This document shows positions 50,474 to 52,083 of a DNA stretch of 64,000 nt, one piece after another (the first letter of the stretch is position 1; the number at the start of each line of letters is the position of its first letter). Location: assembly GCF_054482595.1 (NCBI RefSeq), contig NZ_CM137008.1; one strand, 5' to 3'. A program made the position numbers and the translations under genes. Under the pieces are notes generated by a model, which was not told the origin of the DNA, did no database searches, and saw only the letters and a program-made list of their open reading frames with translations.

Positions 50474-52083
50474 CTGCTTTTCTCACATTTGCAGATTTTA
50501 AAAAAGCAAACAAAAACCTCCGTACATGATGTACAGAACAATCTACCAGGTAGTGGCGTCAGAAAACCTCCGGGCCGCCTGCACTTTCCGGAATGCGCCG
50601 GTTATGAAAAACCGGAAATTCAGTCTCTGTTGTAAGATGTACCCTCTGATACTACGTTTTCTCTGTGTATTTAACTCACTGTATTTATTGTCTTTTTAAG
50701 CTTGACTAATATTCTCCGGTCATAGTGTGCCGGATACACATCCCGTAAACTTCTCATTTTTATATAAAAATACCTGCACTCTCTTCAGCGCATCTGTCTC
50801 CTTTAAGTAAAAAATGTTTTTACGTATTGCTGTAAATTCATTTTAAATCAGTATATTACCTTGATATTGCTGTCTCCTGGTTTGATGCGTAATCGTTCTG
50901 CCTTTCTGGATGATTCTGGTGCTTCCGGGTGCATTCTCCTCTGCACATGCAACAGTTCGTCATCGCCACGCTCCCAAAAAGCATATAAAAACGAATCGAA
51001 TTTGATATTTTTTTCAATCGTTTTTCATAGGAATTTCGTAGGGTATTCTCCGCTATAACCTCCATATTTGCTGTCTTTTTCTTCATAAATCGTATGCAAT
51101 GTAGCCTGTCTGTCAAGACCTCTTCTCTGCTGTTGAGGAGACGATCTCATTTTTGGTCTTTTCCGGGAGAGAGGCTGTCAGATGAGCGAGCCGGATATAC
51201 TGTCAGAGGTACACCCCGTAGCAGACCTGTGCTCCCATTTCCGCGATCCGGAACCAACAACACCCTACGGTTAATACCATTTGAAGCGTCAGGTACTGCA
51301 GGAAGTTCCCCCCTGCGCGGACATCGGTTCCTGCCGACATCTCACAATACGGCCAGACTGTCATGCAGTAACACCCGCATGCGGTCTGCGGTTTTAAGCG
51401 CACTCTCCCGTTTTCAGTGCATCGATAATGCGTCATAGTAAGTCTGGGGGAAGTTACGGAATGCCTGTTAAGTGGTGCCGTGGGTGGAGACAGCTTACTT
51501 TTCTACAGCAACTGCAGTCATTCAGGATGATCAGGAGATATTCTGTCAATGTCACGATCCTGCCATTTTCGTACCCGCTAAGATACTTCCGTTACTGATG
51601 CTGTCCGCTTTTCACCATTTCATCCTCACTGACAGGCGTTGCGTTTTGGGTCATCACCACAGCTTTACGTTTCTCTTTTAACCGGTAACGCTCTCCTTTG
51701 ATATTCAGCGTGGTTGAGTGATGCAGCAGTCAATCCAGGAGCGCTGTTGTCCGGCAACCACCATATCAACTTCTTCCCGGGTGTGGCGGAGAGGTGGTAT
51801 CCTGGCTGAGTTTCGAAGCGAACCGTTCTTTTTGACGGGCGCATTTTACGTCCGGGCTGAATGTAGTAACGCGGCATGGAACGTCGGCCCGTATACCATT
51901 GCCTTAATCTCCGCAAAGATAACCTCGTCATTCCGGACATTCTCTGCCAGGCATATGTCGATGTAATCCATAAACGATTTCAGCTTACCCCTTTTGTTGT
52001 CACGAACGGTGCAATAGTGATCCACACCCAACGCCTGAAATCAGATCCAGGGGGTAATCTGCTCTCCTGATTCAGGAGAGCTT

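Follow-up and report, generated by a model that had tools for sequence, protein, structure and literature searches.

In enterobacterial genomic islands, AT-rich promoter regions are subject to silencing by H-NS. A second type of control with a bearing on long, horizontally acquired operons is processive antitermination, of which lambda Q, the AlpA protein of Pseudomonas aeruginosa acting at PalpB, and RfaH with its ops element are described examples (PMC7969949). By sequence, P. aeruginosa AlpA is described as homologous to none of the known antiterminators, and its fold is 21Q-like (PMC7969949, PMC9371919). Here, we consider a gap of about 1.5 kb between a gene for a protein of 387 amino acids (aa) and a copy of the insertion sequence (IS) IS100, inside a CP4-44-type island of the Escherichia coli chromosome that adjoins yeeA/tmaR, a context taken from the near-identical APEC17 locus. 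The window is the whole stretch of 64,000 nucleotides that was analysed (assembly GCF_054482595.1, contig NZ_CM137008.1). The gap is a composite without an intact gene, in which an IS21-like relic is followed, towards the 387-aa gene, by an unconstrained spacer of about 330 bp and then by non-coding, AT-rich DNA of about 740 bp; the core of this last part is under purifying constraint. We give about an even chance to the reading that the AT-rich DNA (50,474-51,211) would act as the promoter and leader, of about 620 nt, of the minus-strand backbone operon of the island. The parts of the gap and its borders are as follows:

49,310-50,473, minus strand: ORF (open reading frame) of the 387-aa gene, with the RefSeq start at a GTG at 50,461.
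50,474-51,211, minus strand: AT-rich non-coding DNA, candidate promoter and leader.
51,212-51,544, no strand: variable spacer, 52.6% GC, with indels of 43, 19 and 8 bp and 13-23% divergence.
51,545-51,997 and 53,952-53,988, minus strand: IS21-like relic, 490 bp, recognised by blastn, tblastn and its terminal repeat.
51,998-53,951, plus strand: IS100, 1,954 bp, intact (TGTCA...TGACA), with a 5-bp duplication, TTTGT, at 51,993-51,997 and 53,952-53,956.

The constrained AT-rich core

The initial annotation described the region as gene-poor and partly AT-rich, and its base composition bears this out. The GC content of 50,600-51,100 is 36.7%, against 48.4% for the window as a whole; in 200-bp steps it lies at 35.5-40.5% across 50,600-51,200 and at 47-56% on either side. 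Only 10% of 500-bp windows are as low in GC as 50,600-51,100, and nearly all of them come from one extended GC-poor stretch at 8-15 kb. From the 387-aa gene to IS100, no ORF is longer than 114 aa (plus strand); the next have 91 aa (minus), 86 aa (minus) and 82 aa (plus). Eight gap ORFs compared with Pfam gave nothing significant at E ≤ 1 except one weak match to DUF5960 (E = 0.016, below the gathering score), four compared with NCBIfam gave no match, and the micro-ORFs had only non-significant matches in PHROGs (E about 0.06). The earlier statement that 50500-51997 holds no recognisable ORF thus stands in so far as the longest has 114 aa and none belongs to a known family, but the right-hand 453 bp (51,545-51,997) are a recognisable IS21-type relic.

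The segment 50,474-51,560 (1,087 bp) is present in 2,092 of the 5,426 complete E. coli genomes at 87-100% identity, and CP4-44-type islands occur in about 39% of complete E. coli genomes. Among the 40 RefSeq records listed of 2,094, nothing is annotated under this segment; the few 'hypothetical protein' entries found there represent 14 bp at the 5' end of the 387-aa gene where its start is called further upstream. At about ten inspected loci, the only gap features annotated in RefSeq are two IS21-family pseudogene fragments.

One way to explain such a stretch would be the decay of a protein-coding gene that is still intact in some relatives. Older GenBank records speak for this in that they name ORFs here, as 'hypothetical protein' (c2513 of CFT073, the plus-strand 114-aa ORF of the spacer region, and a minus-strand ORF of 76 or 86 aa) or as 'transposase' (a 77-aa ORF at 51,203-51,436, also in the spacer region). 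The evidence makes the explanation highly improbable, however. No intact annotated gene was present in the E. coli records listed or in the inspected loci, and neither the c2513 ORF nor the 77-aa ORF has a homologue outside this locus, so that the 'transposase' label was rejected; significant matches to Pfam, NCBIfam or PHROGs are absent. Proteins of Citrobacter and Cronobacter relatives did not match the gap in tblastn, and the ORFs are located in the part whose indels are not divisible by three. The 76/86-aa ORF is split by +2 indels in the lineages of loci L006 and L011, and a T-run of varying length frameshifts it in natural variants. Its variable sites fall on codon positions 1, 2 and 3 in the numbers 9, 7 and 10, without three-base periodicity, so that frame retention together with third-position bias was not found across the lineages. 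When the 76-aa form was run through HMMER against 1.8 billion representative proteins, only frameshift variants of the same locus came back. The 1.07 kb between the relic and the 387-aa gene thus shows no coding signal.

Constraint on this DNA was assessed in an alignment of ten copies from five lineages, with the dead IS21 relic as the neutral yardstick. Identities between the window and four loci, L008, L011, L006 and L014, are:

Relic (istB part): 83.1% (L008), 81.7% (L011), 91.0% (L006), 86.8% (L014).
Spacer, 51,212-51,544: 80.4% (L008), 76.5% (L011), 85.5% (L006), 87.0% (L014).
Core, 50,801-51,211, minus strand, AT-rich non-coding: 94.6% (L008), 90.5% (L011), 94.9% (L006), 94.4% (L014).
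Block within the core, 50,865-50,965: 98% (L008), 96% (L011), 95% (L006), 100% (L014).
387-aa gene: 86.8% (L008), 86.5% (L011), 96.0% (L006), largely deleted (L014).
Proximal part of the presumed leader, 50,462-50,800, minus strand: diverges at about the rate of the 387-aa gene (86-87% in L008 and L011), except for a patch at about 50,590-50,660.

Divergence in the core is slower than in the neutral DNA by a factor of two to three and, in L008 and L011, also slower than in the genes on both sides. Compared with relic and spacer together, the difference is significant by Fisher test in each lineage (p = 6e-10 for L008, 7e-7 for L011, 1e-4 for L014 and 1e-4 for L006). A finer profile resolves conserved patches at about 51,190-51,000, 50,967-50,880 and 50,660-50,590. 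The spacer evolves like the dead relic and is probably neutral DNA. In L014-L016 (locus 2808-3001; the equivalent of 49,526-50,473 of the window is missing), the 387-aa gene has suffered an internal deletion of 948 bp, while the non-coding DNA upstream is retained and its core is 94% identical. Short tandem units also differ in copy number between lineages: a 9-bp unit, TTCTGTACA, at about 50,535, the 6-bp GAAAAC at about 50,660, a run of five to seven T (T5-T7) at about 50,975, and a TTG/TGT repeat in the region of 51,990-52,000, where IS100 inserted.

Could the whole 1.07 kb nevertheless be functionless debris of the rearrangements that put alpA and a 200-aa gene in the orientation of the 387-aa gene, with recombination mosaicism or local mutation rate behind the uneven conservation? 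The module is visibly mosaic, L006 being an example with 96-97% identity in the 387-aa gene and the proximal leader and 85% in the spacer; an IS relic, length variants of tandem repeats and indels of 8-43 bp are all present, relatives with a divergent alpA manage on only 500 bp, and no predicted element is individually above chance. Yet the core is the slowest segment in four separate lineages, falling below the relic in divergence and, in L008 and L011, below both flanking genes, and recombination would need to have homogenised the same 400 bp repeatedly. Taken together, this makes an origin as mere debris unlikely in our view.

Candidate promoter, leader and alternative products

The AT-rich DNA contains the following candidate elements:

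51,089-51,116, minus strand: sigma-70-like promoter candidate, TTGACA-16 nt-TACGAT, 10 of 12 matches, predicted start near 51,082.
50,856-50,963, minus strand: ORF-B, a 35-codon micro-ORF (MTNCCMCRGECTRKHQNHPERQNDYASNQETAISR) whose ATG is preceded at 7 nt by GGGAG.
50,775-50,792, minus strand: hairpin T1, a 6-bp stem (UGCGCU/AGUGCA) then GGUAUUUUUAUAU; -7.9 kcal/mol, z -1.7; in the lower part of the core.
50,518-50,538, minus strand: hairpin T2, a 9-bp stem with a 3-nt loop (UUCUGUACAUCAUGUACGGAG) then GUUUUUGUUUGCUUUUUU; -9.6 kcal/mol, z -2.3.

The promoter candidate is the best sigma-70 match of the whole stretch, and its hexamers are invariant in the ten sequences from five lineages, while 4 of the 16 spacer positions vary. 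The stem of T1 is likewise invariant across variants, and its loop alone varies. Some 45 nt separate T2 from the start codon of the 387-aa gene downstream. Variants of T2 keep the stem (U.G to C-G in L011, A-U to G.U in L008), the loop-closing pair being broken in L006. As T2 is a near-perfect palindrome (GTACAT-C-ATGTAC), it could alternatively be an operator, and, if the C-terminus of the 387-aa protein is a ribbon-helix-helix, it could be the operator of that protein. By eye, residues from about 335 to 375 (SVPLKLSGKIHKQLESIARSRGVLPKKLLNEMIEQAY) do look like a ribbon-helix-helix; this was not borne out by Pfam, by a sequence search of the PDB or by Foldseek.

A sequence of events consistent with these elements can be proposed. 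Transcription would start near 51,082 from the sigma-70 promoter at 51,116-51,089 and run through a leader of about 620 nt that carries a short upstream ORF and the weak hairpin-plus-U-run sites T1 and T2. The two sites would hold downstream expression low unless transcription reads through into the backbone operon, that is, into the 387-aa gene, the GTPase gene, the dynamin-like gene and onwards. Given the low GC content, silencing of the H-NS type would be likely as well. Promoter use, termination at T1 and T2 and the way in which these sites may be overcome are what we infer from the sequence. The case for a promoter and leader draws on the right strand and position, the invariant hexamers, the purifying constraint, the terminator-like sites before the gene and the known expression of the gene downstream: its CFT073 counterpart, c2514, is expressed and responsive to nitric oxide (PMC5320621). 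A peak of NsrR in chromatin immunoprecipitation, reported in CFT073 between c2513 and c2514, was considered and rejected as a feature of the gap, since it sits 200 bp within the gene, outside the gap DNA.

Several findings weigh against this interpretation. The promoter candidate scores 11.6 bits, while the best matches in shuffled sequence average 9.5 bits and reach 12.0 at the 95th percentile; it is thus no better than chance for 1.1 kb of such composition. Both T1 and T2 are weak, and the scan gave four terminator-like sites where 2.0 +/- 1.5 are expected. Conservation peaks in the middle of the leader (50,865-50,965) and not at the promoter, which would fit an RNA or peptide product equally well. 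About 180 genomes, in the band of 80-90% identity, have largely lost the 387-aa gene yet have kept the DNA upstream. Finally, the distant relatives in Citrobacter and Cronobacter have an intergenic region of 500 bp with no such hairpin. The suggestion of the initial annotation that the gap may hold promoters for the minus-strand operon is plausible, with the best sigma-70 match on the minus strand and its hexamers invariant in five lineages, although the match itself does not exceed chance.

The position of the conservation peak leads to the question of whether the core is a separate small gene, with a transcript of about 315 nt that would run from the promoter at 51,116-51,089 to T1 (about 50,768) and be either a regulatory RNA or the messenger of the cysteine-rich ORF-B. 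The most conserved 100 bp (95-100% identity) coincide with the start and first 28 codons of ORF-B, the frame is intact in all ten sequences, a Shine-Dalgarno-like GGGAG or GGGAA stands 7 nt upstream, conservation drops downstream of T1, and the core is kept in the lineage in which the 387-aa gene is deleted. The variable sites of ORF-B fall on the three codon positions in the numbers 5, 3 and 5, and within its first 28 codons three of the six substitutions are synonymous, but six are too few to demonstrate coding. The Shine-Dalgarno-like motif is degraded to GGGCA in one lineage, T1 is weak, and the peptide has no relative in protein searches. On the RNA side, Rfam 15 covariance models gave no match at E ≤ 1 in 49,000-53,000. 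With RNAalifold, six sequences of 86-97% identity, a set of low power, gave an unfavourable covariation term of +3.5 kcal/mol and 3 of 232 pairs compensatory, and the minimum free energy of the 624-nt leader has a z of only -2.0. A separate small gene is, on balance, unlikely. For the more specific proposal that the core (about 50,770-51,120, minus strand) would be an unannotated small gene of the island, encoding a regulatory RNA of about 0.3 kb or a cysteine-rich peptide of 35 residues (MTNCCMCRGEC...) that controls the backbone operon of CP4-44-type islands, the prospects are poor. A small RNA had also been raised by the initial annotation; the Rfam search proposed there returned no family and covariation is lacking, and the constrained non-coding core leaves room for such an RNA all the same.

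The AT-rich composition and the conservation at the nucleotide level without a coding signal would also suit a cis-acting site for mobility or maintenance, such as a replication origin, a mimic of an origin of transfer (oriT) or a leading-region single-strand promoter, and the island does carry genes of the leading-region type (DUF932, an antirestriction gene and RadC). We regard this as very unlikely, because the core contains no iterons and no repeat family that stands out beyond short, often-chance matches, and no giant hairpin like Frpo: windows of 300 nt on both strands fold at -22 to -44 kcal/mol (z -2.7 to +0.9), as against the roughly 300-nt hairpin looked for. Moreover, only 3 of 2,495 places of the segment are on plasmids, nearly all copies being chromosomal, no relaxase or replication gene is adjacent, and the 387-aa protein has no recognisable fold or family (its AlphaFold model is poor, with a pLDDT of 60, and gave no fold match).

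The IS21-like relic and two IS100 insertions

The part of the gap next to IS100 is homologous to IS21 (51,545-51,997) and is a dead remnant, not an active element. Its features on the minus strand are:

51,545-51,559: right terminal inverted repeat, TGTCAATGTCACGAT against TGTCAACGCCACGAT in IS21, 13 of 15 bases the same.
51,595-51,750: istB' pseudogene fragment, IstB residues 214-265, 81% identity, E = 3e-26, one in-frame stop.
51,746-51,997: istA' pseudogene fragment, IstA residues about 52-134, frameshifted and interrupted by IS100, resuming at 53,952-53,988.
53,952-53,988: final 37 bp of the relic (istA codons about 41-52), with no IS21 homology past 53,988.

With the intact IS21 on plasmid NZ_CP054233 as reference in blastn, 51,561-51,749 corresponds to the last 158 nt of istB and 31 nt downstream at 90.5% identity, and 51,746-51,997 with 53,952-53,988 to an internal piece of istA at 85.9%. 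The same istA part gives, by tblastn, IstA residues 41-134 (E = 2e-19) with a frameshift and stops. The last 52 codons are what is preserved of istB, and 11-12 bp are deleted just inside the terminal repeat. In RefSeq, the pieces are labelled by PGAP as 'AAA family ATPase, incomplete' and 'IS21 family transposase, frameshifted, incomplete'. The relic resembles IS21 in its right terminal repeat beginning TGTCA, in the order of istA and istB and in their location on a single strand; it differs in lacking the left end, istA codons 1-40 and the whole interval between istA codon about 135 and istB codon about 213, and it is unable to transpose. The full set that marks a complete element, with terminal repeats at both ends, undamaged istA and istB and duplicated target DNA, is absent from the relic. 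An IS21-like element once inserted with its right end at 51,545, and subsequent deletions removed the left end and most of the interior. The reference plasmid (L007) itself carries, at 931-5034, two tandem IS21 copies with a 3-bp TAG junction, an arrangement that is presumably the reactive (IS21)2 form.

IS100, in contrast to the relic, is complete in length, genes, inverted termini, 5-bp duplication and RefSeq names. Its two genes are:

52,084-53,106, plus strand: IS100 istA, ORF of 340 aa.
53,103-53,885, plus strand: IS100 istB, ORF of 260 aa.

Its target was the dead istA piece of a relic from its own IS family; in this lineage, IS100 transposed there later. The comparison with genomes lacking IS100, which the initial annotation had recommended, was informative here. 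E. coli O103:H2 12009 carries the same relic without IS100, and its empty site is 3 bp off the reconstructed one, in the short TTG/TGT repeat that also varies in other strains. The relic was found in every lineage compared, including L008 and L011, in which the module is only 80-88% identical to the window. Since it occurs both in IS100-free and in such divergent lineages, the relic is older than the insertion in the window and than a second one. The latter lies about 100 bp to the left, in the same orientation and with a CATTG duplication, in CFT073, in ABU 83972 and in 1,212 further genomes (1,214 in all), and was located at 5426-7379 of the ABU 83972 locus (L005) and at approximately 2,347,085-2,349,040 of CFT073 (NC_004431). 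In 398 genomes the junction is of the window type, and 1,487 genomes show no interruption there. There are 15 differences between the two IS100 copies. The insertions in the relic are independent, and two hits in 250 bp are a hint that IS100 prefers remnants of its own family.

The initial annotation had also considered that the gap contains remnants of a gene destroyed by IS100. It is true that IS100 sits in a gene fragment, but this fragment is an istA piece of an older IS21-like element that was dead before IS100 arrived; as the piece was already truncated, deleted and frameshifted, IS100 destroyed nothing functional. The inserted element may stop transcripts of alpA and the 200-aa gene from reading through. 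At its right end, RefSeq annotates a 50-aa 'hypothetical protein', WP_000349537.1 (53924-54076, plus strand), that begins within IS100 and extends beyond its end into the adjoining relic; the insertion probably created this ORF as an artefact.

Island setting and comparison with known systems

Upstream and downstream of the gap, the island genes discussed here are arranged as follows:

55,716-55,510, minus strand: alpA, island gene, 68 aa.
55,416-54,814, minus strand: 200-aa island gene, followed by the long gap and then the 387-aa gene.

On the minus strand, the 387-aa gene is followed by genes for the GTPase, the dynamin-like protein, RdcB and a patatin-like protein, and farther along the island by DUF932, the antirestriction gene, RadC and cbeA/cbtA. 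The GTPase (48,354-49,226) has weak PADLOC matches, the best to LeoBC (E = 9e-9). Neither the 387-aa nor the 200-aa protein has a significant match in Pfam, NCBIfam, PHROGs or PADLOC, and PADLOC was equally negative for the ORFs of the gap. About 165 nt upstream of the alpA start lies a homopolymer of 14 G (55881-55894), which is a G13 in APEC17 and interrupted (GGAGGGGGGTG) in O103:H2 12009; this may be a slippage-prone tract in front of an island regulator. Between the relic and the 200-aa gene, 53989-54813 is a further 0.8 kb of unannotated DNA that has 64-65% identity in other lineages or is missing from them. ARAGORN found no tRNA or tmRNA gene in 48-56 kb or in the whole window, in agreement with the initial annotation, which had seen no convincing tRNA; an island boundary inside the window is therefore not a tRNA gene. 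Elsewhere in the window, Rfam gave matches at gathering score to naRNA4, JUMPstart, STnc490, the His operon leader and STnc240 (2230-2300, 8845-8883, 16689-16812, 27053-27176, 29916-29990).

A peptide-pattern scan of 100,044 species genomes gave no more distant copies, blastn in distant mode bottoms out in E. coli at about 87% identity, and two rarer lineages at 80-88% identity were recovered through protein clusters. In the relatives in Citrobacter koseri and Cronobacter, with 30% protein identity, alpA is divergent from the gene and the upstream DNA shows no nucleotide homology; strings shared with them (TACCCTACGAA, TTTTGTTTGCTTTT) were not above shuffles and were rejected. Since these relatives have the 500-bp intergenic region and a divergent alpA, the long gap of E. 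coli looks like the product of an IS-associated rearrangement around an older promoter region.

Overall, the feature is ordinary island anatomy and not a new kind of element; what is mildly interesting is that a very common module has a core of about 400 bp that is both constrained and unannotated. The analysis explains a hole of 1.5 kb in the annotation, one third of which is an IS21-type relic already flagged as pseudogene pieces in RefSeq. It also points to where the backbone operon of this widespread E. coli module is most likely controlled, a region with some 400 bp constrained more than the neighbouring genes, and thereby offers a defined segment for deletion or reporter fusion work. The two IS100 insertions, found in 398 and 1,214 genomes, should be handy as lineage markers.

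How does the candidate promoter and leader compare with the systems described so far? The presence of an alpA gene in the island invites a comparison with the P. aeruginosa antiterminator. The island AlpA, of 68 aa, belongs to PF05930 (a Pfam match recorded for homologues in related loci), and its matches in the PDB are weak (the AlpA-family regulator 8c3t at E = 0.06, TorI at E = 0.1) and include no P. aeruginosa AlpA chain. Given this absence and the different fold of the P. aeruginosa protein, a role of island AlpA as an antiterminator was rejected, and the shared name is a coincidence. With the leaders of processive antitermination systems, the locus has in common a candidate promoter, a long leader and terminator-like hairpins before a long, horizontally acquired operon (PMC7969949); unlike in those systems, no antiterminator has been identified here, the hairpins are weak, and Rfam detected no ops/JUMPstart element in 49,000-53,000. 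The likeness to AT-rich, H-NS-silenced island promoters lies in composition and position, in that DNA of 36-40% GC stands directly upstream of island genes in a genome of 48-51% GC.

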